From an uncultured bacterium (GTDB lineage: Bacteria; Fidelibacterota; Marinisomatia; SCGC-AAA003-L08; JACNLC01): 64,000 bases of DNA. Of this stretch, positions 35,620 through 55,346 are shown piece after piece. The first letter of the stretch is position 1. Each line of letters opens with the position of its first letter. The notes under the pieces are model-generated. The model worked only from the letters and a program-made list of their open reading frames with translations, ran no database searches and was not told the origin of the DNA. Both the position numbers and the translations under genes were made by a program. Location: contig CAZGNZ010000001.1 of NCBI GenBank assembly GCA_964527215.1, positions 129,276-193,275 on the forward strand, given 5' to 3'.

Positions 35620-36786
35620 TTATTCCCGCCAGCCAGGCAGATCATCCGGATATTCAGCTTCGTCCGACTCGTGACAACCCTCGCAGGACGGCGGTTCACC
35701 AAAGTCTTCATCGATATGACAGTCTGAACAGTCCAGGTCTTCATGATCTTCGCTTAGAATAAGACCTGTAACCCCATGATCAAAGGATCCGGCCAGCCAG
35801 TGGATGTGACAGCTGGTACAGTTAACGGACGGTGAGGAAAAGTCCTTGACCGATCCATGGCAGCTTTCACAGGATACCCCGTCATGCCTTGGACTCAAAG
35901 GCCATCCGACTGAAACGGCGTGATCAAAAGCAGGCTTTTCTTCCATACTGTGGCAGAAGCCGCATTCCTGTTCAGAATTGCAGTTGGCGACGTGACATTT
36001 GCAGCAGCTGTTGCGGCACAACGCACAATCATCAACAGCCATGGTTTTCTCCGTGGGATTGATATGCTCCTCATGGCACTTCCGGCAGCCGTCCCCCTGA
36101 TGACAATCCACACACTGCAGACCGAACAGGTCAACATGATCTGTATGATGGAAAGTCACCACGGGCCCATCCTGGAGATGAGTGTGATAAATATATTTTT
36201 CTTCCGCGACGATTTTCGGATGATGAGTCATCCCCATAATATCCGATTTATCAACTGCAGCAGTTTTCCCGGAAGCATCGTCTGCAACTTCATGACAGAT
36301 ATTACACTCGGATTCATGGCTCCATTCACGGTGGCAGTTCAAACACTGCCGGTGGTAGGCGGCTTTCAGAGAAGGTTTCTGAATGCTGATGGAATCCCCT
36401 GTGGCATCATGGCATTCGCGGCACGGCGGTACCGGTTTATCCGGTTCCGAGAAGTGGTGGCATAACTCGCACCCACCGGACATATCCGACATTTCGGCAT
36501 GGAGTTTATGAGTAAAAAAGACGGGTTTGTACAGATTCGCAAGGTGATCCATGATAACTATTTCAGGTCCTTCGGTAATCTGATGCCGACCTTCAAAATG
36601 TCCCTCGTGGCGTGGACAATCAAGTAGGCAGGGATCTTCCTTCGTAGGCTGGTCACATACATGACATGTGGCACAATAGCGGTTCAGTGACTGTTTGTGG
36701 AAATCATCGTCGGTTCCGGCAGACCAAAGAAAACTGAGTACCGGAAGAAGCAGAGCTGCAGAGATTTTAATATTTGATTTACGCAT
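35620..36786 (-). CDS. Periplasmic multihaem cytochrome c, 13 CxxCH motifs (Hmc/Nhc-type partner of the FeS/NrfD module)
   Basis: It has a signal peptide (MRKSNIKISAALLLPVLSFLWSA). Hand-counted motifs are CATCH, CELCH, CRECH, CLNCH, CNICH, CVDCH, CRKCH, CCKCH, CGFCH, CESCH, CTSCH, CSDCH and CEGCH. The start overlaps the NrfD-like stop by 8 nt. Confidence 0.9.
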   Translation of the reverse strand: MRKSNIKISAALLLPVLSFLWSAGTDDDFHKQSLNRYCATCHVCDQPTKEDPCLLDCPRHEGHFEGRHQITEGPEIVIMDHLANLYKPVFFTHKLHAEMSDMSGGCELCHHFSEPDKPVPPCRECHDATGDSISIQKPSLKAAYHRQCLNCHREWSHESECNICHEVADDASGKTAAVDKSDIMGMTHHPKIVAEEKYIYHTHLQDGPVVTFHHTDHVDLFGLQCVDCHQGDGCRKCHEEHINPTEKTMAVDDCALCRNSCCKCHVANCNSEQECGFCHSMEEKPAFDHAVSVGWPLSPRHDGVSCESCHGSVKDFSSPSVNCTSCHIHWLAGSFDHGVTGLILSEDHEDLDCSDCHIDEDFGEPPSCEGCHESDEAEYPDDLPGWRE

Positions 36787-37993
36787 GTTTTTTGTGCTCC
36801 AATTCTTCTATCACTGGGAAATGAATGACAAAAAACCGGTATACCAGAATCAGCAGTGAAATGAATCCAACAGTGACCAGTATCTCGGTGATTGCAGGAA
36901 TATACCTGGACTCGGCATATGGGGGCTGATACCCGACGATGAATACATTGACCCGATTAAGGACCACACCAACTACGACTGCCGCAGCGCCGCTGAACAG
37001 CCAGATGATTTGTTTCCGAAATCTGCGGCTTGACAAAACCACAATGGGATATATCACGCCAATGAGCATCTCTGCATTGAAGAACCAGGACTCCACAGTT
37101 CCCTCAAGAACATAGTGAAAAGTCCCGCGGTTCACCATATCCAGAGTTTTGGCAAACAGATAAATCCACAGCAGCAGTGGCAGGTAACGGGCATACTGAC
37201 TTAAAATTGATATTTCCGGTTTCAATTTGAAAGACCATGATGCCAGCAGGGATTCAAAAATCACCATCGCGATTCCCACGGCAAAGGCGGACAGGAGAAA
37301 AAGGAGCGACAGAATGGGTGTGTGCCAGAGAGGGTGCAGTTTCGAAGGCACAATCACCATCAGCGTACCCAGCGAGCTTTGATGCATACAGGACAGCACC
37401 ACCCCCAAAATGATAAATATAAACATAGCCTTGCCGAATGTGTTGTCCAGGAATTTGAGCAGTCCTTCCGTGGCGTTATTCAGGCTCTTCATGATACCCG
37501 GAAGATTCACCCGTGATCGAAAGCGTTCAGTCAGAATGGGAATAAACTCAATATAAAGTACTGTCAGGTAACTGACAACACAGATGCCGACTTCAAACAA
37601 GGCTGAGTTGCCCTGCCACATTGAAGGAAGCAGAACATGCCATATCCAGTAGTAGCGACCGAGATCAATCACCACTCCCAAAGCCACAAAGGTATATCCC
37701 AGCATGGCAGTGAGCAGTGCCGGCCGGGTAAGTACCGCGTAGCGCTCGCGATGCATGATGTGGGCAATGAAGCTGGAGGTAAATCCACCGGCTGCAAGGG
37801 CCACACCGCAGGCCACATCAATCCCAATCCAGATACCCCACGGATACTGACCGTCAAGGTTCGTGGCAGCTTCAAGACTGAAAACAAAACGGTAGAATGC
37901 ACTGGCAAGCCCAAGGGCGGCCAGCGCAGTGAGAATCCAGACTCCAGGCGTAAAATAGGGGATACGTTTGACGGGGAGGACGGCAGTGGACAT
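36779..37993 (-). CDS. NrfD/PsrC-family integral membrane quinone-interacting subunit
   Basis: A 404-aa polytopic protein. …NLDGQYPWGIWIGIDVACGVALAAGGFTSSF… is the typical NrfD/HmcC/DsrP/ActC-type N-terminal signature. The ATG overlaps the FeS-subunit stop. Confidence 0.85.
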   Translation of the reverse strand: MSTAVLPVKRIPYFTPGVWILTALAALGLASAFYRFVFSLEAATNLDGQYPWGIWIGIDVACGVALAAGGFTSSFIAHIMHRERYAVLTRPALLTAMLGYTFVALGVVIDLGRYYWIWHVLLPSMWQGNSALFEVGICVVSYLTVLYIEFIPILTERFRSRVNLPGIMKSLNNATEGLLKFLDNTFGKAMFIFIILGVVLSCMHQSSLGTLMVIVPSKLHPLWHTPILSLLFLLSAFAVGIAMVIFESLLASWSFKLKPEISILSQYARYLPLLLWIYLFAKTLDMVNRGTFHYVLEGTVESWFFNAEMLIGVIYPIVVLSSRRFRKQIIWLFSGAAAVVVGVVLNRVNVFIVGYQPPYAESRYIPAITEILVTVGFISLLILVYRFFVIHFPVIEELEHKKHA

Positions 37994-38901
37994 TATTCTT
38001 CCTCCTTATTGTATAGTTTCATTGCCAGGCCCAGCAAACCGGCCAGAAGAATCGGTCCACTGAATCCTTTGAAAATACCATGCTGAATGGATTCAGTCAG
38101 GTGCGCGGGGCAGTCACTGGACAGTACCGGGAGGTCAACCTCCTCAAAGGGCACATTTGAGATGTACATCCAGCTGGTGCCGCCGACTTCATGTTCACCG
38201 TAAACATGATCCACATAGCGGTCCGGGTGTGTTCGAATACGTTCATGAGCGAGTTCAAGCAGCTCGCTCCTTTTTCCGAAAACCATCACTTCACGCGGGC
38301 AGATCGAAACGCAGGCCGGGAGTTCACCGGTTTCAATGCTCTGTTCAAAGCAAAGTCCGCATTTCATGACCTTGGGTGTCAGGGCATTGCTGTATTCATA
38401 CTGGGGAATTTGGAAGGGGCAGGCAACCATGCAGTAACGACAGCCGATACACTTGCTGGCGTCATATGTAACCGGCCCCTTCGGATTTTTTTCCAGAGCG
38501 CCTACAATACAGGCAGAAACACAAGCAGGATGCTCACAGTGCATGCACTGTACTTTTACATCCAGCGGGAAGCCGTCGATACCTTTTCCGGGATATCGGT
38601 TAACCACGGTGTACTGGTGGTCTGACGGCCGCCGAAATTCTTCCATAACAGAGGGATCGTCATACGAAGCAATGTCATCATGCGGCAGTCCATTGTTTTC
38701 TGCACATGCATATTCACATTTCCGACATCCGATACAAAGAGTCAGGTCAGACAGAACTCCTATCCTATCCGGATCAAGCATGGCATCATGCGTGGCCTTC
38801 TGGGCAGAAGTAATGTGCGTATTGGTGTGGGAAGGGACGGTGCTCGCTGCTGCAGTCCCGGATAAAAGTCCCACTGCCTTAAAGAATGATTTTCGATCCA
38901 T
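37993..38901 (-). CDS. Tat-exported 4Fe-4S ferredoxin-type subunit (NrfC/PsrB/HybA/HmcB-like) with a C-terminal TM anchor
   Basis: It has a Tat-like leader (MDRKSFFKAVGLLSGTAAAS, an RK variant). Cys clusters are CIGCRKCEYAC, CMHCEHPACVSAC, CIGCRYCMVACP and CGLC…CVSICP. The C-terminal helix is GPILLAGLLGLAMKL. Confidence 0.85.
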   Translation of the reverse strand: MDRKSFFKAVGLLSGTAAASTVPSHTNTHITSAQKATHDAMLDPDRIGVLSDLTLCIGCRKCEYACAENNGLPHDDIASYDDPSVMEEFRRPSDHQYTVVNRYPGKGIDGFPLDVKVQCMHCEHPACVSACIVGALEKNPKGPVTYDASKCIGCRYCMVACPFQIPQYEYSNALTPKVMKCGLCFEQSIETGELPACVSICPREVMVFGKRSELLELAHERIRTHPDRYVDHVYGEHEVGGTSWMYISNVPFEEVDLPVLSSDCPAHLTESIQHGIFKGFSGPILLAGLLGLAMKLYNKEEE

Positions 38902-38915
38902 GGTTGAATATTCCT

Positions 38916-40895
38916 TTACTTCCGGTTGTTTTCAGAAATATGTGACAGCTCTTTCATTTTCTTTAATTCGTTTTTTAAATCTCTTTCCATTTCTGCTTTG
39001 GCCTCTTCAACATAATCCGGATGCTCATGTGCATACATGTCTTCAGGCATCTTTCCGGTAAGCCATGACGGATTCATGGGATACACTTCCGGATTGAAAA
39101 CAGTCGAATAGAAATGCCAGATGGCAATAGCCAGTGTGGCAAGCCAGGCTTCCCAGTAGTGGACCACCAATGCCACATCCAGGACACCTTTCGGGAAAAA
39201 CTGAATAAAATAATTGTCAAACCACAGCAGCAGGCCGCTGACGATCATCACAACAGTACCCCAGACCAGCGCCCAGTATTCTGCTTTTTCAACGTAGCCG
39301 AATCTTTTAAACCGCGGAGATGTTTTTGACAGACCCAGATAAAATGCAATTCTGTGACCGAATTGAGTAAAATCAAGCAGTCTGGGCCACATATCCACAA
39401 GGAACTGGCGGCCGCGTCGGGTAAACAGAAAGATCGTGTGCCACAATACCGTTATAATAAACAGAACGGCAGCATAGCGATGGGCCAGACCGCGCATCTC
39501 AAATCCGCCTTCCCAACCGAAGAAGGTTTTTGCCATCCAGGACTCGCTGAAACGCAGTGAAAAACCGGTAATGACCAGTGCAATAAACGAAACCATTAAA
39601 AAAGTGTGCTGCCATACTTCATGCAGCTTCATTCGGCGAATTTGGGGTTTTTTGATGACAAGGCGAAGCTGGCGATACAGGTCCAGAATCCAGTGTATCA
39701 CCATAAAACCGATAATAATGACTATGGCAACGATATATATTTTTTCAACGATATCCGCCACGGTAGTCTGCAGACCTGTACCCGAAACACTGTGAATGGC
39801 AGTGCTGGCCAGTTTGGCCGAGATTCCGGGGTGACATTCACCACAGGTCGCTCTCAGATTGTTGGGGTGAACGGTTGAGCTGGGATCCGTGCTTGGCAGG
39901 ATTCGGTGGACGCCATGGCAGGATGCGCAGTTGGCTACATGCGTGTCGCCCGCCTTACTCTTTAATCCGTGATAAGAGTCAACAAAAGTATTCAGCCGTC
40001 CTGTCGGCAATCCGTATTTTTCATTAAGCCGGGTGGATTCATGGCAGGGAGAGCAGGTTGCTTCGGCAAGCCTTGCCGCGGATACGGGAGATCGGGGATC
40101 TGAGGGTGAAATAATGCCGTGTTCCCCGTGACAGTCCGTACAGACCGGGGCATCCGTTTCTCCTCTGTCAACCAGCTTACCGTGTATGCCGTCCATGAAA
40201 TCATTTTCGATTCCTCTATGACATTTTCCACAGGTCTGAGGAATATTGAAGTGATTTATTGCGGATTCAGGATGACCGGGTGAATAGATATGGTGCGAGC
40301 TGCCGCCTGAACTGTGACAGTCATCACAGGTTGCCGCGACATAAATCCCGCCTGTTGTGGCTTTTCCATGAACACTGTTGGAATACATTTCAACCGGATG
40401 CGACAAAAGCAGATCATACTGATTGATGAGGTCCAGGTTTTCGTGGCATCTTCCGCAGGTGGCGGGAAGATTGGTAGGATGCACCAGAGAATGCTTTATA
40501 TCCGGAGGCAGTACCTCGTGGGTGCCGTGGCAGTCAGCGCAGGAGGGGATATCTCCGCACTCCCCGACAATTTCACGTCCGTGAGCCTGATACTCTTCGG
40601 ACTGGTCATCATGGCAGGTTCGGCAGCCCTCACAGCCGACATCCAGATAGGCCTCTTCATGAGGGTAATACTCCTTATCCTGGTGACAGTCCTGACACTC
40701 AAGATCTTCATGGATGGAATGCGAAAGATCGTCTTGAATAACTGTCCCGTGAATTCCCGTTTCGTGACAGTCGCTGCATGAATCCGAATCAATTTCTTCA
40801 GCCTCTTCGCCAGCTGCCGGAAAAGCGAAACAGCCTAAAATGAGAGAAAAAAAGATCAGTAAACGGTGTGTATCGATTTGTTTGAGCAAGTGCAT
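38916..40895 (-). CDS. Fusion protein: 11-haem cytochrome c (periplasmic) plus C-terminal membrane b-type cytochrome domain (CbcL-like)
   Basis: It has a signal peptide and 11 CxxCH motifs (CSDCH…CGECH). These are followed by 4-5 TM helices with conserved His (…EVWQHTFLMVSFIALVITGFSLRF…AHRYAAVLFIITVLWHTIFLF…VHYWEAWLATLAIAIWHFY…). That region resembles the FdnI/HydC (Ni/Fe-hydrogenase b-type cytochrome) family. Confidence 0.85.
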   Translation of the reverse strand: MHLLKQIDTHRLLIFFSLILGCFAFPAAGEEAEEIDSDSCSDCHETGIHGTVIQDDLSHSIHEDLECQDCHQDKEYYPHEEAYLDVGCEGCRTCHDDQSEEYQAHGREIVGECGDIPSCADCHGTHEVLPPDIKHSLVHPTNLPATCGRCHENLDLINQYDLLLSHPVEMYSNSVHGKATTGGIYVAATCDDCHSSGGSSHHIYSPGHPESAINHFNIPQTCGKCHRGIENDFMDGIHGKLVDRGETDAPVCTDCHGEHGIISPSDPRSPVSAARLAEATCSPCHESTRLNEKYGLPTGRLNTFVDSYHGLKSKAGDTHVANCASCHGVHRILPSTDPSSTVHPNNLRATCGECHPGISAKLASTAIHSVSGTGLQTTVADIVEKIYIVAIVIIIGFMVIHWILDLYRQLRLVIKKPQIRRMKLHEVWQHTFLMVSFIALVITGFSLRFSESWMAKTFFGWEGGFEMRGLAHRYAAVLFIITVLWHTIFLFTRRGRQFLVDMWPRLLDFTQFGHRIAFYLGLSKTSPRFKRFGYVEKAEYWALVWGTVVMIVSGLLLWFDNYFIQFFPKGVLDVALVVHYWEAWLATLAIAIWHFYSTVFNPEVYPMNPSWLTGKMPEDMYAHEHPDYVEEAKAEMERDLKNELKKMKELSHISENNRK

Positions 40896-40920: not shown

Positions 40921-41385
40921 TCATGATGTGTCCGTACCAGTCGTGTATCTCAGGTACCGCTTTAAATTCCTATATGGTTCAAGATTTCGATATACCTCAC
41001 ATTCTCTGCAGCTGGATTTCGATAAACTGTCTGCAGCAAGCCAACAGGGCCCGGTGATTGATGTGACTGCACTGCACTGTGCATTGCCTCCAGAATTGCA
41101 TCCCCGAATATTCCAGCAGGGAATCAGTGCCAGGAGCGCTTTTATGCCGGCAATATTCAATCCCTGCTTTTCGATCAGGAAGCGAATATGGGTCAGGCGC
41201 TTAATATCGTTCACCGAATACAAACGATGTTTTGTCCTGGTCCGCTGTGTCAGTATCAGCCCGTTATTTTCATAAAGCCGAAGCGTGTGAACAGAAACCC
41301 CGATTATTTCCGCTGCTATTCCAATGGTAAAAACCGGATGGTCTTCTTCCAGCAGTTTATTTTCTTTGCGAGGTTTCAAATCCAT
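40921..41385 (-). CDS. MerR-family transcription regulator with a C-terminal Cys-rich two-CW-like domain (paralog 1)
   Basis: The HTH is …FTIGIAAEIIGVSVHTLRLYENNGLILTQRTRTKHRLYS…. The tail is …LALIPCWNIRGCNSGGNAQCSAVTSITGPCWLAADSLSKSSCRECEVYR…. I chose the ATG at 41385; the track's TTG at 41391 is possible. Confidence 0.8.
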   Translation of the reverse strand: MDLKPRKENKLLEEDHPVFTIGIAAEIIGVSVHTLRLYENNGLILTQRTRTKHRLYSVNDIKRLTHIRFLIEKQGLNIAGIKALLALIPCWNIRGCNSGGNAQCSAVTSITGPCWLAADSLSKSSCRECEVYRNLEPYRNLKRYLRYTTGTDTS

Positions 41386-41404
41386 CAACAATAAACTATA
41401 AAGT

Positions 41405-41426
41405 ATCTATATTTTAGGATATAGAT
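41405..41426 (-). promoter_or_regulatory. Perfect inverted repeat ATCTATAT-N6-ATATAGAT in the AT-rich region just upstream of the MerR/cytochrome operon (candidate operator)
   Basis: The palindrome is seen directly in the sequence, 20-41 nt upstream of the MerR start. MerR-family operators are typically dyads inside the promoter spacer. No -35/-10 assignment was possible by eye. Confidence 0.3.
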
Positions 41427-41545: not shown

Positions 41546-41570
41546 AAAAAGGGAGAGGTCGTCCTCTCCC
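41546..41570 (-). terminator. Rho-independent terminator downstream of the 1022-aa cytochrome gene
   Basis: On the minus strand it reads GGGAGAGG-ACGA-CCTCTCCC followed by TTTTTCATTTT. Confidence 0.65.
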
Positions 41571-41814
41571 TGTTGTTAACTTTTTTATCTGCATACCGGT
41601 TTCAACACTCCGATGTTGGTTCTTCAGAAAAACGTTTCCAGTCAGGAATCTTCTTCTGAAAATCAAACATCAGTGATCAGTCCCCAGTTGGGGAATTGGA
41701 AATGCAGCGTGAGTGCTCGTCCTTTCAGCGTCGGATTCGGAAATTCGATTCAAAGAGTTTTCCGGAAAACCGATCGGGTTGAACCAATTCTCACTCGCTG
41801 AAATGGTCCAACTG

Positions 41815-44800
41815 CTACTTCAGCAGCATAACCTTTCTGGATTCTGTGACGGTTTCCGTGATCAAACGTATGATGTAGACACCGCTTGCCTGACCGGAAG
41901 CATCCCAGTTCATGGAATGATATCCAGCCGGCATATTTCCACTGAACAGAGAGGTGATTTCCCTTCCCATGGCATCGTAAACGATAATTTCCAGTCTGCT
42001 GTCCTCAGGCAAGGAGAAATCAACAGTAGTGACAGGGTTGAAGGGATTGGGATATGCAGCGCTGAGTGCAAACTCATCCGGGATGGAATTCACCACCGCA
42101 AACACACCGTTGCCGCTCCAGTCGGCAGTCAGCATGGTTTCAACCTGAACAAGACCGGTATAATACAATAGGATATCTTCAGTCTCACTGCCGTTGGTGT
42201 TTACACCGACCAGGCGGGTATCTGAATGATCAACCAGCCAGCCGTCGGGCAGGTTTGAAGATGTGATTACGAGGTCACCCTGGAAACTGATTTCAAAACC
42301 GGCAATTTCCCCGTCAGACGTGATTTTCATCTCTCCGCCGCCAACCTGCAGCTGAGCTTCTGAAACAGGATTTAGACGCAAAACGTCATTACCAAGGATG
42401 TGGGCGACCACAGCCACAACATCCAGAATATCAATGGCTCCGTCTCCGTTCCAGTCACCTGCATAATCAATATAACTGGTGTGTTCCAAGTGACCCAGAA
42501 TTACACTGACAATCTGAACAATATCAAGAATGTCAATATTGAAATCGCCGTTCACATCACCGGCATCACCCACCATCACTGATTCCAGAGGTGAATTTTC
42601 GGACTCATTCTCATGAACATCCGTAGCCGTGATTGAATACATGTACTCACCGCCTGACGACAGGCCAACATCCTGAAAACTGCTGGTGGCGCTGTAGCCG
42701 ATCAACTCACCGTTTCGGTAGACTGTGAAATACTGAAAATCCGCATCCTGCGGCTCATCCCAGCTGATTTCAACAGACTGATTTCCATAGACTGCCAGGA
42801 ATCCGGACGGAACGGTTGGTGCAAGATTGTCGACAGAGTATCCTTCTGCAACGGTGGATTCGTATATCATCCCTGCCTGGGAAATCGAATACACCTGGAA
42901 TGAAGTCAGAGCATTGTCAACAGATGTGGAATCAAACAATGTGGGCACTACCAATGAGTACCGGTCGCTGCCGTCCGCAGGATGATCCCCGACAAGAGTC
43001 CATGTATCATCATAGGCATCATACCGTTTAATCGTATAGAACTCCACCGGGTCAGGCGCGATGCCGTCATTAACAAATGCATCCCAAATCACTTTGACCT
43101 GGCCTCCCTGGTCATTGGGAATATCATCAATTGAGACGATATCGCCATCGAGAGCACCGTTCTGCATGGCGGTTATGGATGCATTCAGCAATGCAACGGT
43201 AAAGGCCGGGTTGTGAATGCCGTAGCTGTGATCATAATACACCATGTCATAGTTGAAAGCGGCCTTCAATTCGGTCAGCGACCATGTTTCATCCACATCG
43301 TCATGGGGATCATAATGAGTTGTGTCGTCGGAATGGGGCAGCATGGCTCCTAATATGTCAAGGAGTCCGTGAACCTCGTGCTGCAGCCCTTCAGGTGTGC
43401 CGTCGCCGTCAAGATCCGCATTGCCGTCAACATAAAACATTTTTTCATCAAATGAATCACCCACATCACCGTGACAGTCAGTGCAGATGGCTACATTGTC
43501 AACGCCCTCTTCCGTAACAACCGAGAATGAATGCCCGCCGACCAGCAGCGAATGTCCTTCATCATCGGTCATCGGCGAACCCATATGACATGACGTGCAT
43601 GAATTCTCAATGCCGGCCAGATGAGGTGAGGTGGGCAGATCAAGTCCAAAAGTGATCGCATTGGTTGCCGCCAGCATATCTGCCTGCGGAACATAATGCG
43701 GACCGTAATGTGAATGCGGCTCATCGGAGTAGGAGTCTGCGTCACGGCGGCCTTGATGACAGTTCATGCAAAGCTTTCCGGATCCGCCCTGGGTGACCAT
43801 TTCTCCGTTGTTCAGCTCAACATCCGCCAGAGTACGTATCTGATACATGTTTTCAGCACTGTGCGGTTCATGACAGGTGGCACAGGTGATCGGCATATAA
43901 CTGGGATCGAAATCGGGATCATCGGTTTCAACGCCGTCAACATACTGTATAAATCCGGTTCCGGTATGACATCTGACACAGCTTTCCCTGCCGGGTCCGG
44001 TCGGGTATGATGTGGGTGCTGCATGACCGGAAATATCCCACTGCTCCGGATATACATGATAATGACCGTCATCGTGGCAGTAGGCACAATTTGCGGATTC
44101 CAGGTTGGATACCATGCGGTTATCGGACGTTTGACCCATATGAGCACTGCCCGGTCCATGACAGCTTTCACACTGAATCCGACCCAGCTGCATTGCATCA
44201 GGGTAAAAATCATAAAGCAGATCAAACACACCCGGGAAGAGATGACCGTCCTCTGAGCCGTAATTGTCAACCAGATCAGCCGAGTCAGGAAATACAAATT
44301 CCCAGTCATCAAATCCATCGTTATCCGCATAAATATCGTGACCGGTTGTATGGCAGTCCAGACAGTAGCTGGCATAGTGGTCACTCAGTGTTCCATTCAT
44401 TCCTTCCTCAAAGATGGAGTAGTGACCAGTCATTTCCCATTCCGAATGCTGATCTGAGTGACACATACCGCACAAACCGTCATCTATTCCAATATAGTGG
44501 GCTGCATTAACAGTGACCTCGGCCATAACACCATTATCAGAAAATTCAATAATATATGTACCCTCCAGATCCGGCATGAAAGAAATTACCTGAGTATATT
44601 CATCAGGATTTTCTGAAGGACCCGGTACCGAGGCAGAACCGGCAGGTGCAGACAAAACTGTCCAGACAGGGGCTGTCAGAACAGCATCGGATGTACCCTG
44701 AAGGAACATGGTGGTTTCAACACCGACATTCAATAATCCCGTATATCGATACTCATATATGTCCAACGTATCCAGACCGGCTTCGCGGGGCGAAACACCA

Positions 44801-44883
44801 TATGGTTCCACAGTTACTGTCTGTGACAGCAGGACAGTGAACATGCATATTATTACAATTGGTAGCAGTGGTGCATTTTTCAT
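41815..44883 (-). CDS. Cell-surface multihaem cytochrome c: 9 CxxCH motifs, beta-sandwich/FN3-like region, dockerin-like repeats and a T9SS C-terminal sorting domain
   Basis: It has a signal peptide (MKNAPLLPIVIICMFTVLLSQ) and an AGGAGG Shine-Dalgarno. Motifs are CGMCH, CLDCH, CESCH, CAYCH, CVRCH, CATCH, CMNCH, CTSCH and CTDCH. The dockerin-like pair is DVNGDFNIDILDIVQIV…/DWNGDGAIDILDVVAVV… (nt ~42391-42570). The C-terminal tail (nt ~41818-42084) is …SAAYPNPFNPVTTVDFSLPEDSRLEIIVYDAMGREITSLFSGNMPAGYHSMNWDASGQASGVYIIRLITETVTESRKVMLLK. Confidence 0.9.
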   Translation of the reverse strand: MKNAPLLPIVIICMFTVLLSQTVTVEPYGVSPREAGLDTLDIYEYRYTGLLNVGVETTMFLQGTSDAVLTAPVWTVLSAPAGSASVPGPSENPDEYTQVISFMPDLEGTYIIEFSDNGVMAEVTVNAAHYIGIDDGLCGMCHSDQHSEWEMTGHYSIFEEGMNGTLSDHYASYCLDCHTTGHDIYADNDGFDDWEFVFPDSADLVDNYGSEDGHLFPGVFDLLYDFYPDAMQLGRIQCESCHGPGSAHMGQTSDNRMVSNLESANCAYCHDDGHYHVYPEQWDISGHAAPTSYPTGPGRESCVRCHTGTGFIQYVDGVETDDPDFDPSYMPITCATCHEPHSAENMYQIRTLADVELNNGEMVTQGGSGKLCMNCHQGRRDADSYSDEPHSHYGPHYVPQADMLAATNAITFGLDLPTSPHLAGIENSCTSCHMGSPMTDDEGHSLLVGGHSFSVVTEEGVDNVAICTDCHGDVGDSFDEKMFYVDGNADLDGDGTPEGLQHEVHGLLDILGAMLPHSDDTTHYDPHDDVDETWSLTELKAAFNYDMVYYDHSYGIHNPAFTVALLNASITAMQNGALDGDIVSIDDIPNDQGGQVKVIWDAFVNDGIAPDPVEFYTIKRYDAYDDTWTLVGDHPADGSDRYSLVVPTLFDSTSVDNALTSFQVYSISQAGMIYESTVAEGYSVDNLAPTVPSGFLAVYGNQSVEISWDEPQDADFQYFTVYRNGELIGYSATSSFQDVGLSSGGEYMYSITATDVHENESENSPLESVMVGDAGDVNGDFNIDILDIVQIVSVILGHLEHTSYIDYAGDWNGDGAIDILDVVAVVAHILGNDVLRLNPVSEAQLQVGGGEMKITSDGEIAGFEISFQGDLVITSSNLPDGWLVDHSDTRLVGVNTNGSETEDILLYYTGLVQVETMLTADWSGNGVFAVVNSIPDEFALSAAYPNPFNPVTTVDFSLPEDSRLEIIVYDAMGREITSLFSGNMPAGYHSMNWDASGQASGVYIIRLITETVTESRKVMLLK

Positions 44884-45593: not shown

Positions 45594-48095
45594 TCAGAAA
45601 AAGGTGCCCACGATAATCAGTGTCAGAAGCAGGAAACCAACGATCAGGAAAATCGCACCAATAATCAGCAGAAGCTTTTTTAATACGGGATGGGTGGGGT
45701 TTATCAGGGCTTCCTGATATTCAGAATCACTGAGGAGGTTTTTTTCTCTGGGCCGCTCTTTGGCGAATCTTTCCTCTGTTACCCGGCCTGTGAATATGAC
45801 TTCATCCATGGGGAATGCGCCCGGGCGCAGATGGGTGTTGAAAAAATGCACCGTAAAAATGAATGCAGTTGCAAGCAGAGCTTCTTCCGAATGGATAATA
45901 TGCGCGGCATTGATCAGCCAGCCGGGAAATGCCCGTGCAAACTGTTCCGGAAACCAGAGTGTCAGACCGCTGATTCCAATAACAATCATGCCCCAGAAAA
46001 CTGCAAAGTAATCGAATTTTTCCCAGTATGTCCAGCGGCCGAACTCCGGTTCTTTTTTCCGCAATCCGATGAAATAAGCCAGATGATTGAAGAAATCAGA
46101 AAAATCCTGGAGATTTGGTACTAAACTGTCAGGTCCCCAGAACAGTCCTTTTTGTTTTCTCACTGTCGCTTTATAGATCAGCATGAATACATGGATGAAC
46201 ATAACGACAAACAGAATTACTGCAGCCACCCGGTGAGCCAATGCGGCAGCATGAAATCCGACAATATTGTGAACAAACCAGTTTGCCATCTCTGAATGAC
46301 TGTATTTTAGAGGCAGACCGGTTCCTGCCAGCACCAGAAACCCACCGGCCATGAAAAAGTGAAGAATTCGGTCGAACAGGTTGAATCTCTTTACGCGACG
46401 GCTGGTTTTTGGAGGAGGATGGATGGGGCCGTGTCTTAACCTGTGGATCATGAGTCGAATAAGCCAGAGCAGTGTATGGCCGCCAAATACAACAAACACG
46501 CCGCCAAGGAGCCAGATCATAAACAGATGTATGCCGTGAAGGACAGGGTTTTCCTTCTCAGTCATTGGAGTGTAATGTTCCAGATACTGAACAAAATTCT
46601 CACTGACATTTTCATGGCACTGGCTGCAGGTTTCAATAATGCGTTCTTTTCCTATACTGGAGGCCGGGTGATCGGAAGGCAGAATTGAATGATTGTCGTG
46701 ACAGGAGACACAGGTGGCAAATTCTTCACCCTGATATCCCAGCTGATACATTTGACCGTGATAAGATGTGTTGTATCCTTCCACGACATGTGCGTTCAGC
46801 TGAAATTTCATGGTTAGACTGCGGTCCGCATGGCAGCGGCTGCAAAGGTCAATGGTGGATTGTCCGATGAATTTCTCATCCGATTTCTGGATTCTGCGTT
46901 CATCGTGACACTCGATACAGCCCGGAGCTTCAAAATGACCCTTTTGTCTGGCGATATAATGAGAGGACTGCTCGTATTCTTTCTGCACGTCCGGATGACA
47001 GTCCGCGCAGGATTTTTCCAGAGCCTGGTCCTGGGAATGCTCCGGTGCCATGTAGTGATATGTATGGCAGTCTCCGCAGTTGGAGGCTTCCCCGTTTGCT
47101 ATTTTCTCCAGTTCGGTTCTGTGAATAATACCATGGGCATCATTTTCACCAATGATAAGATCCTGCCCGTGGCAGCGAATACAGACACGGTCCAGTTCGA
47201 TATCAAACACCGTGGTTCGAGTGGTACCCACCATTTCGGTCTCATGACCGGTGTGACATACAACACACGTTGTCATTCGGGGATCCTCAAGGCGGTCCGG
47301 CTGGTGGATGGATGCTTCATAGCCGGAATGACACTTCGTACAGACCATATCCAGTCTTGCAACAGACACTCGACTGTCCGGATCACGCGGGGAGAGTACT
47401 TTGTGGCTGGCGTGACAGTCAGAGCATATAGGCGCTTCAAGATTGCCCTGAGTCAGCTGTTCATAATGCCCGCTGTTGAAGTAGTTTTCAACGTTTTCCC
47501 GGTGACAGATTCGGCAGGATTCCGCGAGGTGAATTTTCCATCCAAATTCGGTATACTGCTGCTTTTCATGCTTATTGTGCGGTGAATGGCAGGAGACGCA
47601 GGTGACATCACCGGTCTGGGTGTCTTCATGCCAGTGTGCTGACTGCAGGAACTCATCCAGGATATCCTGATGACAGGTTCCGCAGACCTGCCGCGGCTGA
47701 CCTTGCCAACTGACTTTATGAGCTCCGTGGCAGTCAGAACAAGTCGGCAAAGCGGTATATCCTTTTGCCCGCAGCGGAGCGAAAAATCCGTCTATGAACT
47801 CTTCCTGGGCATCTTCATGACAGATACCGCAGTCAGGTATGATCAGACGTTCTTCATGAGGGAAATCATCTATGCCGTCTAAATCTTCATGACAGTCAAT
47901 GCAATCAAAGTCCTCATGCGGGGTTCCTGATAAATGATCCGATGTCACATGCAGAGACACTTCCACACCATGTTTCACTTGTGAGAGTTTCTCATCGTCA
48001 TGACAGGCTTCACAGGTTTCATTGTCCTGCATTAGAACTGGGGTCGTTAAAATTCCGACAAGACCGGCAAACAGCAGAATTCTATTCCGAAGCAT
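45594..48095 (-). CDS. Fusion protein: 17-haem cytochrome c plus C-terminal membrane b-type cytochrome domain (second CbcL-like paralog)
   Basis: It has a signal peptide and 17 CxxCH motifs by hand count (CEACH … CSQCH). TM helices with conserved His follow (…GIHLFMIWLLGGVFVVFGGHTLLWLI…RILHFFMAGGFLVLAGTGLPLKY…AHRVAAVILFVVMFIHVFMLIY…HIIHSEEALLATAFIFTVHFFNTHL…). Confidence 0.85.
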   Translation of the reverse strand: MLRNRILLFAGLVGILTTPVLMQDNETCEACHDDEKLSQVKHGVEVSLHVTSDHLSGTPHEDFDCIDCHEDLDGIDDFPHEERLIIPDCGICHEDAQEEFIDGFFAPLRAKGYTALPTCSDCHGAHKVSWQGQPRQVCGTCHQDILDEFLQSAHWHEDTQTGDVTCVSCHSPHNKHEKQQYTEFGWKIHLAESCRICHRENVENYFNSGHYEQLTQGNLEAPICSDCHASHKVLSPRDPDSRVSVARLDMVCTKCHSGYEASIHQPDRLEDPRMTTCVVCHTGHETEMVGTTRTTVFDIELDRVCIRCHGQDLIIGENDAHGIIHRTELEKIANGEASNCGDCHTYHYMAPEHSQDQALEKSCADCHPDVQKEYEQSSHYIARQKGHFEAPGCIECHDERRIQKSDEKFIGQSTIDLCSRCHADRSLTMKFQLNAHVVEGYNTSYHGQMYQLGYQGEEFATCVSCHDNHSILPSDHPASSIGKERIIETCSQCHENVSENFVQYLEHYTPMTEKENPVLHGIHLFMIWLLGGVFVVFGGHTLLWLIRLMIHRLRHGPIHPPPKTSRRVKRFNLFDRILHFFMAGGFLVLAGTGLPLKYSHSEMANWFVHNIVGFHAAALAHRVAAVILFVVMFIHVFMLIYKATVRKQKGLFWGPDSLVPNLQDFSDFFNHLAYFIGLRKKEPEFGRWTYWEKFDYFAVFWGMIVIGISGLTLWFPEQFARAFPGWLINAAHIIHSEEALLATAFIFTVHFFNTHLRPGAFPMDEVIFTGRVTEERFAKERPREKNLLSDSEYQEALINPTHPVLKKLLLIIGAIFLIVGFLLLTLIIVGTFF

Positions 48096-48327: not shown

Positions 48328-48912
48328 TTATTTCTTTTTATCCTCCGGTGTGGGATGAGCGACTTCTTTGATACGCTCAGCAAAAACGAACTTTTTATAG
48401 GTCGGGCTTTTTTCATTGTGACAGGATATGCAAAGAGCTTCATTTGGTTCAATGAGACCCACAGAAGCGCCGTCAGTAGTGCCGACCGTAATGGCCTTCA
48501 TCACTTTTTTAGATTTATATTCACTGCCCGGACCGTGACAGCCTTCGCAGCCGACGCCTTTCAAACCGGTCATCCGCTTGACATCCTTGGTGGGCTTGCC
48601 TTTGTCCGTTGTCTGGGCCCAGAACTTTTCATCCTTCACCTCGAACCCGCCTGATCCAAAACCAGTCGCATGACAGGAGAGACATTCAGGTGCCTGCCAG
48701 GCCGGTACATTCAGTTTCATCTCTTCTGCAATCTTCTTTGACTGTTCGGATTTCAGGGTTTCCATTGCACCAATATGCAGACCTTTTTCCCAGGCACCAA
48801 ACTGGTGTTTATGGCACATTTTGCATTTGGCTGAACCAACATATTCAAACTTTGCATCCTGTGCCCACATGAATGGTACACAGAGCAAAAAAAGTATCCA
48901 AAATCGTTTCAT
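48328..48912 (-). CDS. Tetrahaem cytochrome c, cytochrome c554-like
   Basis: MKRFWILFLLCVPFMWAQ is a signal peptide, followed by …VGSAKCKMCHK…W…H. Motifs are CKMCH, CLSCH, CEGCH and CISCH. I trimmed the start from the track (49026) to the ATG at 48912, which gives a proper signal peptide. Confidence 0.85.
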   Translation of the reverse strand: MKRFWILFLLCVPFMWAQDAKFEYVGSAKCKMCHKHQFGAWEKGLHIGAMETLKSEQSKKIAEEMKLNVPAWQAPECLSCHATGFGSGGFEVKDEKFWAQTTDKGKPTKDVKRMTGLKGVGCEGCHGPGSEYKSKKVMKAITVGTTDGASVGLIEPNEALCISCHNEKSPTYKKFVFAERIKEVAHPTPEDKKK

Positions 48913-48938
48913 AACTAACTTCCTCACTTTTTCATCCG

Positions 48939-49370
48939 TTAGAAAATGGGATTTTCCGCCCCATGGCACTGATGGCAGCCCATGGCAACTGGTCCATCGC
49001 TGTTTAGACTGTGGCACTGCCAGCATGTTTCCGCCTGGTCCTCGGAACCGTTGGGATCCATCCCTGCGCCGTGAAAATCATCAGTTCCGGATCTCAGATG
49101 ATCGATGGTACCCGGGTGGCCGCTGGCACCTCCGGCATGACACATGGTACATGAAACACCGGAATGTCCGCCATCCAGAAAAGTACCGTGACAGGTCTTG
49201 CATGACTCGAGTCCTTCCCAACCACGGGTCGCAAGCATCTGGCCGTGAAAATCAACACTGTTTTGATTCATCCAGGTGTCGCTGTGGGTATCTGGCTGAA
49301 CAGATTCAGTACAGGACCAGAAGCTCAGAGCGGTGACGATCAAAATGGTTAACGCGGTATATCTTTTCAT
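48939..49370 (-). CDS. Small tetrahaem cytochrome c lipoprotein
   Basis: MKRYTALTILIVTALSFWSC is a lipobox-type signal. Motifs are CKTCH, CTMCH, CWQCH and CHQCH. A GGAGG Shine-Dalgarno sits 6 nt upstream. The start was trimmed from the track (49466), and it lies directly after the upstream stop. Confidence 0.85.
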   Translation of the reverse strand: MKRYTALTILIVTALSFWSCTESVQPDTHSDTWMNQNSVDFHGQMLATRGWEGLESCKTCHGTFLDGGHSGVSCTMCHAGGASGHPGTIDHLRSGTDDFHGAGMDPNGSEDQAETCWQCHSLNSDGPVAMGCHQCHGAENPIF

Positions 49371-49371
49371 A

Positions 49372-50199
49372 TTAACCTCCATGACAGCGTTGGCAGTAGT
49401 GCGGCTGATGACAGGACTGACATACTTCGGGTGTGGATTCTGCGGCATCTGCATGCATTCCCGCATTGCCGTTGATTATGCCCCAGGTTGTCAGATTGTG
49501 ATCGGCTGGCATAATCATCCGCTGTATGTGACAGGACTGACAGTCATTTTCAATTTGATGGCAGGTCATGCATTCAACTGCATCCAGCCGGGCTTCCAAT
49601 CCGTGAGCCACAATATAGGCCGGTGGATGAGTACTTTTTTCAAAACCCGAATGGTGATGACAGTCATCGCAGAATTTTTCCGTATGGCACATGCTGCAGC
49701 TGGCGGCCTGCGGGTGATTGACGGACAGACCGTGGTCCTCATCCCAGGTGATGTCATGGCTGGCAGGTTCATGTGACTGATGGCATTGTGAACAGGCTGC
49801 CCTTGGCCATGGCTGGCGCAGCGCTTCACCGTCATCTGAGGTGATTCCGCTGTGGCAGGTTTCACAATTTGGTGTGGATGGCCGGTGTGCGGCATGGGAA
49901 AAGTCCACGCCGGATGTGGATCCCATCAGGGGATATGTGTCGGCCTCATCCACATTGGAATGGCATAGTTCACATTCATCTTCCACATCGTGACATTCGG
50001 AGCAGAAATCCATATCCGGCAGATATCCCGGTGTGAGAGATTCAGAGTCTGAAACACCGCTGTGACAGTAGTCGCAGGATAGTTCGACATCCGTAATATG
50101 AAGATCATGCGGAAATATGATGTGATCCGGATCCATTGAGAATCCGTAAGCCGCTAACAAGCTGACTGTCAGCAATGCTTTACAGAGTATACGAAACAT
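49372..50199 (-). CDS. Periplasmic 11-haem cytochrome c (c3/c7-type packing)
   Basis: MFRILCKALLTVSLLAAYG is a signal peptide. There are 11 CxxCH motifs in 275 aa (CDYCH, CSECH, CELCH, CETCH, CSQCH, CSMCH, CDDCH, CMTCH, CQSCH, CQSCH, CQRCH). A GGAGG Shine-Dalgarno precedes the gene, which overlaps the barrel-gene 3' end by 20 nt. Confidence 0.85.
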   Translation of the reverse strand: MFRILCKALLTVSLLAAYGFSMDPDHIIFPHDLHITDVELSCDYCHSGVSDSESLTPGYLPDMDFCSECHDVEDECELCHSNVDEADTYPLMGSTSGVDFSHAAHRPSTPNCETCHSGITSDDGEALRQPWPRAACSQCHQSHEPASHDITWDEDHGLSVNHPQAASCSMCHTEKFCDDCHHHSGFEKSTHPPAYIVAHGLEARLDAVECMTCHQIENDCQSCHIQRMIMPADHNLTTWGIINGNAGMHADAAESTPEVCQSCHQPHYCQRCHGG

Positions 50200-51358
50200 T
50201 GATACCTCCTCGACCGTCTTCATCATAATATGGGTTTTCAATATACATTCCATATACCTGGAAACTGAGATGGGCACAGGGTCTCCAGTTCAGTCTCAGC
50301 TGGGCACCAATGGTGTCCCGGGCTTCTATCAGATCGTCATAATCATAAGAATTCAGCGAGATACCCGCATTGGCACTGATGGTTTGGGTGATGTGTCGAT
50401 TTAATCCGGCAAACCAGCCAAGATTCTGATAATCACCGGATTGGCTGCTGATCAGACCAAACTGCAGACAGCGCCACTGAATGCTGCTGCTGAAACCCAT
50501 ATTGGTATCATCAGACATGCGGTATATCAGGCGATTGTACAGGGCAAACTCTGCAATCCTGCTTTGTACTCCAGCAGACAGCGTGGGGGCGACCAGAAGG
50601 TCTTCATCCAGTCCCGGGAATACATTTTCCGTGAAAATCTGACGCTGTTTTAAACTCAAAATCAATTCATGCTGATTGAACTGCCGGCTGAGTCTGAAAC
50701 GCATTGAATGGATATTTTCATCAGTCACATTGAATGAAAATTTGGCCCGGTAGCTGAAGGAAAGCAAATTCCGGCCGTTCAGTGAACCGCCGATAATCAG
50801 TGGGTCATCCAGTTCATCGTTGTCATACAGATAACTGATTACATTCAATCCAAATCCCATTCCACCGTCAGTTCCGGCTGTCCAGTCGGCTGCCATAAAC
50901 ATGGTTGGATCTTCTTCGGTCTCTGCAAACTGCGGGATCGATCCACCGCTCACTCCCAGCTTGCCGAATTTTCCCAGACACATGCTGTAACGGGCGCCGT
51001 CATACTTGGTGTTCGCAAATGAATTCCAGTAGTTGAGCCGCCCCAGATTCAATGTGCCGAATTTGCTGTACAGGGAAACATCAGCACTGTGAATCTGAAA
51101 TTCGTCGGTAAAGCGGTAATTCGGGGAGCCGTAGGACAAATCGGTTTTAAAGGAAACAAGACTGCCGTAGGACTGCTGATAGGATAGAAAGGTCCGGTAG
51201 TGAACAGTGTCATCCAGTGCATCTGAGCGGTACAGGTCGCCGGAGGTGTCGTTGAACATGTTCAGCCGGGGGGTGATCATGCTTTGGGTGATCGTGAGAT
51301 TCGGACCTCCGGCAAATCCAATCCCCGCAATGATGAGCAATACAAAAATTCTTTTCAT
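50180..51358 (-). CDS. Outer-membrane beta-barrel (porin-like) protein
   Basis: It has a signal peptide (MKRIFVLLIIAGIGFAGG). Alternating-polarity strands rich in Y/G/S/N run throughout (…YGSLVSFKTDLSYGSPNYRFTDEFQIHSADVSLYSKFGTLNLGRLNYW…). There are no Cys or haem motifs. The start was trimmed from the track. Confidence 0.7.
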   Translation of the reverse strand: MKRIFVLLIIAGIGFAGGPNLTITQSMITPRLNMFNDTSGDLYRSDALDDTVHYRTFLSYQQSYGSLVSFKTDLSYGSPNYRFTDEFQIHSADVSLYSKFGTLNLGRLNYWNSFANTKYDGARYSMCLGKFGKLGVSGGSIPQFAETEEDPTMFMAADWTAGTDGGMGFGLNVISYLYDNDELDDPLIIGGSLNGRNLLSFSYRAKFSFNVTDENIHSMRFRLSRQFNQHELILSLKQRQIFTENVFPGLDEDLLVAPTLSAGVQSRIAEFALYNRLIYRMSDDTNMGFSSSIQWRCLQFGLISSQSGDYQNLGWFAGLNRHITQTISANAGISLNSYDYDDLIEARDTIGAQLRLNWRPCAHLSFQVYGMYIENPYYDEDGRGGINVSYTL

Positions 51359-51443: not shown

Positions 51444-52394
51444 TTATTCGTAGGTGTAGTCGAACGAACCAGGCCAATTGTGGGATGTCAGATCATCAAA
51501 AATCATTGAATTGACACCAAATTTCAGGCTGGTGGCATCGTAACCGAGAACGGTCAGATAAGCGGTGATCATGGAAGATGTCTGTCCTGTCCAGCAGTAG
51601 GTGACTATGGTTTCATCGGGATTCAGATATTCCATTCCACCGGCGGCCAGGGTCAAGTCTTCTTTTATGCGGTGTGAACCTTCGATATGTCCGTAAAGAT
51701 CGACATCGGAAGCTCCCCAGTAGTTATTGATAAAATAAGCACCGGGATCATCCAGAACATCGCTGTACAAAATACCTTTGAATCCACCGGCCAGCATGGC
51801 TTCCACCCGCTCCTCAAGCAGGGCAGCACCATCAGCTGTGGAAGATTCCCAGTCAGGATAACCATATTCCATATCACTGGCGATATTGATGGATCCGGGA
51901 TATACCCAGGTATCATAACCGGATGCGCCATAACCCGTTTTACTGGACCAATTATCAAAATCAGAATGCCAGCTGCTCATTCCAAATTTCAGGACCTGAG
52001 CGCTGTAGCCCATGAGGCGCAGTGCCACAACAGCATGTCCGGCGGATTGCCCGGTATAGCAGACCACCAGAATATCTTCGCTGCCGGCGGGTTCGGCATC
52101 GTCAAGAATGGTGGCCAGTGAGCCATTGTGGGCTCCCGGGATATGACCGGTAGCAAAGACTTCAGCACTGCGGATATCAATGATGTAATAATCTTCAGGC
52201 AGACGGGCCAGATTCACCGCATCAGCAGCGACAATCCAGTCGGCCAGAATATCATCCATATCCATGTTATTGGCTTCCAGATAGGTCATCAGCGTGTTGA
52301 AATCACCTTTGTCGTCATCATCATCATCGGAACATCCGCTGAAGATGAACAGGCTCAGCACCAGTAACGGCAGGATATATTTCAAGCTTTTCAT
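51444..52394 (-). CDS. Periplasmic/outer-leaflet lipoprotein with two rhodanese (sulfurtransferase) domains
   Basis: It has a lipobox (LSLFIFSGC) and a poly-Asp linker. There are two GlpE-type active-site loops: …ILVVCYTGQSAGHAV… and …IVTYCWTGQTSSMITA…. Confidence 0.8.
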   Translation of the reverse strand: MKSLKYILPLLVLSLFIFSGCSDDDDDDKGDFNTLMTYLEANNMDMDDILADWIVAADAVNLARLPEDYYIIDIRSAEVFATGHIPGAHNGSLATILDDAEPAGSEDILVVCYTGQSAGHAVVALRLMGYSAQVLKFGMSSWHSDFDNWSSKTGYGASGYDTWVYPGSINIASDMEYGYPDWESSTADGAALLEERVEAMLAGGFKGILYSDVLDDPGAYFINNYWGASDVDLYGHIEGSHRIKEDLTLAAGGMEYLNPDETIVTYCWTGQTSSMITAYLTVLGYDATSLKFGVNSMIFDDLTSHNWPGSFDYTYE

Positions 52395-55091: not shown

Positions 55092-55346
55092 AATCGATGG
55101 GATGGGTTTGTCTGATTCATTGGAAGGTTCAATCGAGATGAAATTGGTCTGTTGTGCAGGTTCTTTTGGTCCTTTTCTTCGAAGAAAAGGACCTCCAAAT
55201 TCATGGATTCAGGTAAGGCAGAGGTACAGTGAGTCTCCGATTAACACATTTTTGATCAATAATGAACAGGTTTTCAATAAAACGTATTGGACGGATGTGG
55301 GATTCAGCAGACAGGCAAAAAACGGTGCTGGTCATAAAAATGACCC

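Follow-up and report, generated by a model that had tools for sequence, protein, structure and literature searches.

A short two-CW domain joined to a GlnR/HspR-like helix-turn-helix: a candidate switch for anaerobic respiration at the head of multihaem-cytochrome operons

What do two small regulators sense, and what do they control, when each of them opens an operon of multihaem cytochromes? The question is raised by a stretch of 64 kb from an uncultured bacterium of the Fidelibacterota (contig CAZGNZ010000001.1, positions 129,276 to 193,275; hereafter the window), in which both operons are encoded in tandem on the minus strand (about 35.6-54.5 kb). A first-pass annotation of this DNA had described the two proteins, here called paralog 1 and paralog 2, as MerR-type helix-turn-helix (HTH) regulators fused to a Cys-rich 'two-CW-like' domain, and had proposed a metal-, Fe-S- or redox-sensing switch dedicated to an electron conduit. 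Our analysis leads to the view, which we hold as rather likely, that the regulator works as a one-component switch under its own control, binds a Cys-ligated cofactor, probably a metal or an Fe-S cluster, and controls its own respiratory operon. The family as a whole probably represents a switch for anaerobic respiration that is widespread and has so far escaped study.

Paralog 1 and paralog 2 are 39% identical across 140 residues (BLASTP, E 3e-35), and both combine the MerR HTH with the junction LNIAGI..LLALIPCWNI, as first described. No third copy and no further two-CW pattern was found in the window. An identical copy of paralog 1 (P0001) is present on 10 public contigs, and a search with paralog 1 as query recovered more than 330 homologs of about 147 amino acids (aa). 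The Cys pattern of the first description is likewise found in both proteins, as CW-x4-C-x7-C-x9-CW-x10-C-x2-C-EVYR with six Cys in paralog 1 and as CW-x4-C-x7-C-x9-CW-x8-C-x4-C-x2-C-EVYR, the canonical form with seven Cys, in paralog 2. Identical spacing to the canonical form (C-x5-C-x7-C-x9-C-x9-C-x4-C-x2-C) was read in 98 of 120 homologs, and over 96 diverse domains the columns C1-W, C2, C3, C4-W, C6 and C7, that is six Cys and two Trp, are invariant. Conservation of the Cys residues among orthologs, on which the earlier proposal depended, is far above chance; because the fifth Cys varies among homologs, its absence from paralog 1 is unremarkable.

The nature of the Cys-rich half is less apparent from the available models: Pfam has none for it, and against the two-CW model NF045718 (cutoff 35 bits) full-length paralog 2 scores 12.2, the paralog-2 C-terminus 15.4 and the paralog-1 C-terminus 9.3. 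A profile of the domain alone (A2), searched against 1.84 billion representative proteins at E<=1e-3, gave 429 matches. MerR-type fusions account for at least 62 of the top 149, which corresponds to at least 62 clusters at 50% identity. The same profile retrieves the chemoreceptors P0151 (E 1e-12, 93 bits with NF045718) and P0170 (5e-11, 91 bits), each with two tandem two-CW copies at the C-terminus, as well as histidine kinases with a C-terminal copy, the protein P0238 (two copies, 39 bits) and stand-alone proteins of 70-100 aa. When the MerR-type domain is aligned by hhalign, profile to profile, with six genuine two-CW copies, the probability is 98.7% (E 3.6e-16). Both versions share the invariant C-W...C...C...C-W...C-x2-C and find each other in profile searches, but in chemoreceptors and histidine kinases two-CW joins signalling domains, whereas in the regulators it joins a DNA-binding domain and is about 8-10 residues shorter between the second CW and the CxxC, which explains the sub-threshold scores with NF045718. 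These comparisons identify the C-terminal half as a shortened two-CW domain, homologous to that of the chemoreceptors. The 'two-CW-like' label therefore survives as a statement of homology, with the amendment that the window proteins carry a shortened variant far below the model's cutoff. The accompanying remark that two-CW is mainly an N-terminal module does not fit the chemoreceptors and kinases found here, in which it is C-terminal.

Searches of the literature on two-CW function, on MerR with Fe-S and HspR, on Psr regulators of Marinimicrobia, on cytochrome-linked MerR proteins and on Cys-rich chemoreceptors found nothing on this architecture, and a search of the PDB gave no solved structure of the domain, in keeping with the initial impression that the architecture had not been characterised. 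To judge from the PDB and from the literature open to search, this union of a GlnR/HspR-like HTH and a short two-CW domain is uncharacterised, yet common; MerR-superfamily regulators with Cys-based sensors are already known.

Within the MerR superfamily, the DNA-binding half falls into the short GlnR/TnrA/HspR branch and is not of the canonical MerR/SoxR/CueR type. The two paralogs are members of the superfamily by the Pfam models MerR_1 (PF13411; 63.2 and 65.4 bits, cutoff 21.6) and MerR (PF00376; 41 and 53 bits, cutoff 28.2), and their top sequence matches in the PDB are GlnR/TnrA-DNA complexes (GlnR 4r4e, phmmer E 5e-14). An AlphaFold2 (AF2) model of paralog 1, based on a 67-sequence alignment (predicted local distance difference test, pLDDT, 85.6; predicted template modelling score 0.78), has beyond the HTH helices of at most 15 residues (H58-72 and H78-86), followed by the short helices of the Cys domain; a long coiled-coil dimerisation helix is absent from it. 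Foldseek superimposes this model on the GlnR/TnrA-DNA complexes with a root-mean-square deviation (rmsd) of about 1 A and 34-45% identity (best match E 6.5e-5, 1.1 A and 45%), whereas CueR, SoxR and CadR fit the HTH only, with a full-length rmsd of 6-13 A. Since the HTH is nearest to GlnR/TnrA/HspR and the long dimerisation helix is lacking, the analogy with MerR, CueR and SoxR drawn at first is a weak one. What is shared with these proteins is the superfamily HTH, followed by Cys residues that could bind a metal or cluster, and a palindromic operator, here a candidate one. The differences are their long antiparallel coiled coil and their CX2CXCX5C motif or metal loop: neither the SoxR motif nor the metal loop of CueR/MerR/ZntR is present in the paralog sequences. 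Membership in the SoxR, CueR, ZntR or MerR families was rejected, as the similarity is confined to the HTH (residues ~19-89) and the NCBIfam scores of 16-38 bits are far under the cutoffs of 117-168.

Members of the GlnR/TnrA/HspR branch dimerise on DNA without the MerR coiled coil, and in GlnR and TnrA a C-terminal element sets the activity. These Bacillus nitrogen regulators (PDB 4r4e, 4r22 and 7tea) come nearest in both sequence and structure, with 73 residues aligned at 45% identity and ~1 A rmsd. They share the short winged HTH without a long coiled coil, and a palindromic operator whose half-sites resemble TGT.A/T.ACA; gating of dimerisation and DNA binding by a C-terminal element is a further likeness to be expected. 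They differ in their C-terminus, a short tail that binds glutamine synthetase in place of a Cys-rich domain, and in a regulon of nitrogen metabolism instead of respiration. Membership in GlnR/TnrA was rejected as well: the NCBIfam TnrA scores (41 and 29 bits) are under the cutoff of 140, a TnrA box is lacking at these promoters, and the Cys domain replaces the tail.

Where might such an HTH bind? The perfect dyad that had been noted before paralog 1 is present at its place and is the sole zero-mismatch CTRTA-N8-TAYAG site in the window. Alone it is not unusual, as 3 matches with at most one mismatch occur in the window vs 2.1 expected, and its significance derives from conservation in orthologous promoters. 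The same dyad stands in the same register upstream of homologous regulators (Table 1), with half-sites retained and spacers diverged, as is characteristic of sites to which a protein binds. Of 46 upstream regions, 5 have a zero-mismatch site (0.09 on average after shuffling) and 13 a site with at most one mismatch (shuffle mean 2.1, maximum 5), for shuffles that kept mononucleotide composition only and a motif derived partly from the sequences then tested; real AT-rich stretches of 220 nucleotides (nt) from the same loci give background rates of 1.6% and 6.3%, respectively. For two orthologs of the cytochrome that follows paralog 2, an exact look-up led to loci in two further metagenomes, L084 and L086; these have CTGTAG-N6-ATACAG and CTACAT-N6-ATACAG, respectively, 16-40 nt before the regulator ATG. 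Paralog 2 itself retains the right half-site, and ATACAGnTTATCTAAAT is common to paralog 2 and L086. Judged from these alignments, there is a conserved candidate operator across genomes. The TnrA/GlnR box is TGTNA-N7-TNACA (17 bp), against a core of TGTA-N8-TACA (16 bp) here, and the likeness of the half-sites fits the similarity of the HTH; the single TnrA-box match in the window, at 33130, lies at neither of these promoters.

A third TATAG half-site (ACTTTATAGTTTA) is located at 41392-41400 on the minus strand, 7 nt past the paralog-1 dyad, where it overlaps a TAnnTTTG-like element (TAGTTTAT), and in L001, L031 and L007 the right half-site shares bases with a -7 box of this kind, the type known from the FCB group (Fibrobacterota, Chlorobiota, Bacteroidota). 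Such positions hint at an operator that overlaps the promoter. L055 and L056 have, some 50 nt upstream of the regulator dyad, a second, different palindrome (GTGGATAATATTATCCAC at ~5870-5895 and GGATAAATATATCC at ~5730-5750, respectively), which may be a site for another transcription factor. The intergenic region upstream of paralog 2 (54490-55346) is unusually long, at 857 nt, and contains GC-rich hairpin repeats (54940-54968 and 55063-55091; 54830-54845 and 54885-54900) as well as a perfect 26-bp palindrome, GGTCCTTTTCTTC/GAAGAAAAGGACC, at 55168-55193. Rfam models matched no RNA family anywhere in the window.

The genomic surroundings of the relatives indicate what such a regulator would control. 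Our context set comprised 80 loci from genomes bearing names, mainly Neomarinimicrobiota/Fidelibacterota, Calditrichota, Bacteroidales and Syntrophobacterales with a few others, and was subjected to open reading frame (ORF) calling, clustering of neighbours, and Pfam and NCBIfam scans. The regulator stands directly upstream, on the same strand, of four operon types: operons with a PhsA/PsrA-like molybdopterin reductase (483 bits with PhsA), a 4Fe-4S protein and NrfD (11 loci); operons with a type III sulfide:quinone oxidoreductase (SQR; 661 bits), DUF1641, DsrC and DsrE (7 loci); multihaem-cytochrome operons (L001, L045, L055 and L056, to which the window adds two more); and operons with a radical-SAM protein (20 Syntrophobacterales loci). 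L001 is syntenic with the paralog-1 operon, and L084 and L086 repeat the gene order of the paralog-2 operon (regulator, small ORF, cytochrome, rhodanese, unknown protein, cytochrome). In a neighbour-joining tree the regulators group by operon type, with paralog 2 among the cytochrome regulators of L045, L055 and L056. The linkage of each paralog to a multihaem-cytochrome operon, as originally described, thus recurs in other genomes; the notion of a switch dedicated to the electron conduit was too narrow, since relatives are also found alone or at the head of operons for a PhsA/Psr-like enzyme, for SQR, DsrC and DsrE or for a radical-SAM protein. Among the copies that were retrieved from Marinimicrobia, Calditrichota and unclassified metagenome-assembled genomes (MAGs), most lead a respiratory or sulfur operon, and the family is not confined to cytochrome conduits. 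The identified hosts, which include Marinimicrobia, Calditrichota, Bacteroidales MAGs, Syntrophobacterales, Thermodesulfobacteriota and Thermanaerosceptrum, belong to largely anaerobic lineages.

Several genomes, some of them MAGs named Neomarinimicrobiota and others unclassified, possess two to three paralogs with a different operon each (L005/L038 on one contig, L008/L010 in one MAG, L017/L021 and L023/L052). The modules headed there are PhsA/Psr-like with FeS protein and NrfD, SQR (by the selenoprotein-subtype model) with DUF1641, DsrC and DsrE, and multihaem cytochrome; in L052 two regulator copies flank one SQR operon. A gene of an Rrf2-family regulator directly precedes the MerR::two-CW gene of a PhsA-like operon (L009:5361-5831), and in L086 the paralog-2 ortholog is preceded by a gene for a universal stress protein (L086:1163-1612). 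Both are possible co-regulators.

How could these parts work together? In the mechanism that we prefer, an HTH dimer would bind the dyad of about 22 bp, (AT)CTRTA(T)-N6-(A)TAYAG(AT), 10-40 nt upstream of its own start codon, and would thereby control the regulator gene together with the co-transcribed respiratory operon. The six invariant Cys would hold a cofactor, with an Fe-S cluster as first choice and Zn or another metal as second; the cytoplasmic location, the invariance of the Cys, the adjacent aromatic residues and the largely anaerobic hosts all speak for cofactor binding. The occurrence of tandem two-CW copies in P0238 and in chemoreceptors, which are dimeric, suggests that the domain works in pairs and, by extension, that the state of the cofactor (redox, O2 or reactive sulfur) would set the pairing of the two sensor domains, and with it dimerisation and the positioning of the HTH on DNA, much as a C-terminal element governs dimerisation of GlnR and TnrA. 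Our guess is that operator binding represses by promoter occlusion, because the sites are 10-40 nt from start codons; activation is the alternative. FNR, the Rrf2 family (NsrR/IscR/RsrR) and WhiB-like proteins resemble this scheme in its proposed logic only, a Cys-ligated cluster that gates DNA binding for anaerobic respiration: no relationship of sequence or fold to them was detected, and the cluster is here only proposed. The spacing C1-x5-C2-x7-C3 is reminiscent of the C-x5-C-x5-C of Rrf2 proteins.

A number of observations weigh against this mechanism. The isolated Cys domain is modelled by AF2 with low confidence (pLDDT 62), a profile search of the PDB with the domain gave no significant match (the top one being a Zn-binding SBP domain, E 0.29), and the Cys spacing is unlike any Fe-S or Zn motif that we could name. 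Upstream of paralog 2 there is no N8 dyad within one mismatch, and the operator counts have the limits given above, namely shuffles of composition only and the partial origin of the motif in the tested sequences. Canonical MerR activators have their dyad within an over-long -35/-10 spacer of 19-20 bp, but a promoter scan of the minus strand detected nothing like sigma-70 near the dyad, by a tool whose scope excludes FCB-type promoters, possibly those of the host; this makes any placement of the operator relative to the promoter, and any sign of regulation, tentative. Finally, in Bacteroidales the regulator is mostly solitary among unrelated genes, with no shared functional theme, which makes the link to respiration clade-specific.

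Within the window, several features bear on the transcription of the two operons (Table 1). The terminator-like hairpin that follows the upstream cytochrome gene implies that paralog 1 starts a separate transcription unit, and the gap of 25 nt between paralog 1 and the 11-haem::cytochrome-b gene, as stated in the first-pass annotation, is a signal of co-transcription; the following genes of operon 1, across 35620-38901, abut or overlap. For paralog 2 the corresponding signal is the ATGA overlap with the next ORF, which is retained in L084 and replaced by an 11-nt overlap in L086. The overlap had been correctly seen, but the ORF concerned is not by itself the first cytochrome gene: it encodes 70 aa and is joined through an in-frame TGA (53834-53836) to an ORF of 462 aa. 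The TGA lies in the motif GGGG-TGA-GGAVVPL and recurs in frame in L084 (2797-4332) and L086 (2764-4335), a hairpin GGNNCC-GUU-GGNNCC follows 11 nt past it with pairing kept via two compensatory changes, and the full-length homologs P0286 and P0385 have Cys at the TGA column (G-C-G-G). In most of the 845 homologs the annotated protein is too short by about 80 residues. These features suggest that the gene probably encodes a selenocysteine (Sec)-containing multihaem cytochrome, for which the PDB has no significant sequence match. MccSep, a recently described five-haem, Sec-containing multihaem polysulfide reductase (PMC13510729), differs in haem count, in the position of Sec and in host phyla, and the cytochrome of the window is distinct from it. 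In the cytochrome island downstream of paralog 2, a protein of 1022 aa combines 9 CXXCH motifs and an MtrC/MtrF-like domain with a dockerin type I domain, FlgD-Ig and a C-terminal sorting tail of the type IX secretion system (T9SS); it would be a surface-exported multihaem cytochrome of an FCB-type organism.

Table 1. Regulators, operon genes and candidate regulatory sites of the window, with the dyads upstream of homologous regulators
Feature	Position	Strand	Description	Basis or remark
Paralog 1	40921-41385	-	154-aa MerR-superfamily::two-CW regulator, gene 1 of operon 1	ORF call, Pfam
Winged HTH of paralog 1	41128-41331	-	residues 19-86, GlnR/TnrA/HspR-like	Pfam, NCBIfam and PDB matches
Short two-CW domain of paralog 1	40987-41121	-	residues 89-133	P-C90-W, C96, C104, C114-W, C126, C129, VYR
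Paralog 2	54043-54489	-	148-aa MerR-superfamily::two-CW regulator, gene 1 of operon 2	ORF call, Pfam
Two-CW domain of paralog 2	54109-54252	-	canonical seven Cys	
Perfect dyad	41405-41426	.	ATCTATAT-N6-ATATAGAT	candidate operator, 19 nt upstream of paralog-1 ATG
Dyad in L001 (syntenic ortholog)			ATCTATAT-TATGAA-TTATAGTT	
Dyad in L021			ATCTATAT-CCAACA-CTATAGAT	
Dyad in L030			ATCTATAG-CACAGA-CTAGAGAT	
Dyad in L041			ATCTACAG-CGCAGG-ATATAGAT	
Dyad in L045			CTGTAT-CGGATA-ATACAG	
Dyad in L055			TTGTAT-CTCAAA-ATACAG	
Dyad in L056			CTGTAT-CGCAAA-ATACAG	
Half-sites upstream of paralog 2, non-canonically spaced	54517-54552	-	CTGTAT 54547-54552, TTATAG 54531-54536, ATACAG 54517-54522	
Intrinsic-terminator-like hairpin and T-run	41550-41571	-	9-bp stem, 6 GC pairs, then TTTTTCATTTT	after upstream cytochrome gene
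11-haem cytochrome c fused to cytochrome b	38916-40895	-	11 CXXCH; Ni_hydr_CYTB membrane domain	follows paralog 1 after 25 nt
4Fe-4S dicluster protein	37993-38901	-	operon 1	
NrfD-like membrane subunit	36779-37993	-	operon 1	
13-haem cytochrome	35620-36786	-	operon 1	
Multihaem cytochrome lipoprotein	52436-54046	-	ATGA overlap with paralog 2	in-frame TGA 53834-53836
Rhodanese lipoprotein	51444-52394	-	operon 2	
Unknown protein, 406 aa	50180-51400	-	operon 2	
11-haem cytochrome	49372-50277	-	operon 2	
Small multihaem cytochromes	48328-49466	-	operon 2	
17-haem::cytochrome b fusion	45594-48095	-	operon 2	
9-haem cytochrome, dockerin and T9SS tail	41815-44883	-	cytochrome island downstream of paralog 2	

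The same genes can be explained in other ways. A thiol-based sensor of reactive sulfur would have free Cys that polysulfide or sulfane sulfur persulfidates or bridges (di- to tetrasulfide), would switch DNA binding in the manner of CstR, SqrR and BigR, and would turn on modules of sulfur respiration and detoxification. The regulon of sulfur enzymes makes it a serious rival: the targets of the closest relatives are the PhsA-like thiosulfate/polysulfide reductase, type III SQR, DsrC and DsrE, the paralog-2 operon contains a rhodanese along with the probable Sec cytochrome, and reduction of polysulfide is proven for another multihaem cytochrome with Sec (PMC13510729). However, six invariant Cys and two Trp far exceed the two Cys of thiol switches, the domain is also found in chemoreceptors, kinases, stand-alone proteins and regulators of Bacteroidales and Syntrophobacterales without a sulfur context, and the cytochrome/NrfD module of paralog 1 shows no sulfur-specific gene; on balance we consider a pure thiol switch quite unlikely. 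We give a similarly low probability to a structural zinc module, in which one or two Zn would serve folding or dimerisation and the signal would come from a partner protein, as it does from glutamine synthetase in GlnR/TnrA or from DnaK in HspR. The domain recurs at the termini of chemoreceptors and of histidine kinases, at times as a tandem, which is usual for sensors and not for plain folding aids, and its restriction, among the identified hosts, to largely anaerobic lineages would be unexpected for Zn. Conversely, the closest HTH relatives are regulated by protein partners and not by ligands, some other dimerisation device is required where the MerR helix is missing, and the top PDB match of the domain profile, not significant as it is, binds Zn.

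It is also conceivable, if highly improbable, that the proteins are ordinary HspR heat-shock repressors or classical MerR metal-efflux activators and that their cytochrome neighbourhood is incidental. HspR, known from Actinobacteria and Epsilonproteobacteria, is a small, autoregulated repressor of the MerR superfamily, encoded by the first or last gene of an operon; it is the top NCBIfam match of the HTH (NF047375, 71 and 62 bits for the two paralogs), and many homologs are labelled 'MerR family transcriptional regulator/heat shock protein HspR' by the Joint Genome Institute (JGI). Yet these scores are under the cutoff of 105, HspR has no Cys-rich domain, the window contains no HspR-associated inverted repeat (HAIR, CTTGAGT-N7-ACTCAAG) even at 3 mismatches, and no chaperone gene is found among the annotated neighbours, which are respiratory, sulfur, radical-SAM or unrelated genes. 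Membership in HspR was rejected for its sub-cutoff score and the missing HAIR site and chaperone context. A classical MerR activator is opposed by the lack of a SoxR motif, of a CueR/MerR metal loop and of a long coiled coil, and by the absence of adjacent metal-efflux genes.

The cofactor-binding, autoregulated switch that we prefer could be part of a larger scheme, which is speculative and in our opinion unlikely. Two-CW would be a new class of redox sensor with a Cys6 cofactor (Fe-S or binuclear metal) and cofactor-dependent pairing, and its fusions with a GlnR-like HTH in FCB anaerobes, Marinimicrobia and Calditrichota among them, would have multiplied into paralogs with operator variants, and perhaps redox thresholds, of their own, to form a 'ladder' that selects among respiratory modules. 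If this is true, the modules of the ladder would be multihaem conduits, polysulfide/thiosulfate reductase, SQR-DsrCE, and the Sec-containing multihaem cytochrome, a type not described before, with its rhodanese.

Marinimicrobia, Calditrichota and related uncultured anaerobes have a major part in the cycling of sulfur and metals, both in oxygen-minimum zones and in sediments. For these organisms the family provides a concrete candidate for a switch between respiratory modules, with a protein of about 150 aa whose expression ought to be easy, a candidate operator of 22 bp and defined target operons. For the two-CW domain, which occurs in chemoreceptors, kinases and more than 60 clusters of MerR-type proteins, DNA binding is the first output that is experimentally tractable, and the identity of the cofactor would annotate hundreds of sensor proteins.

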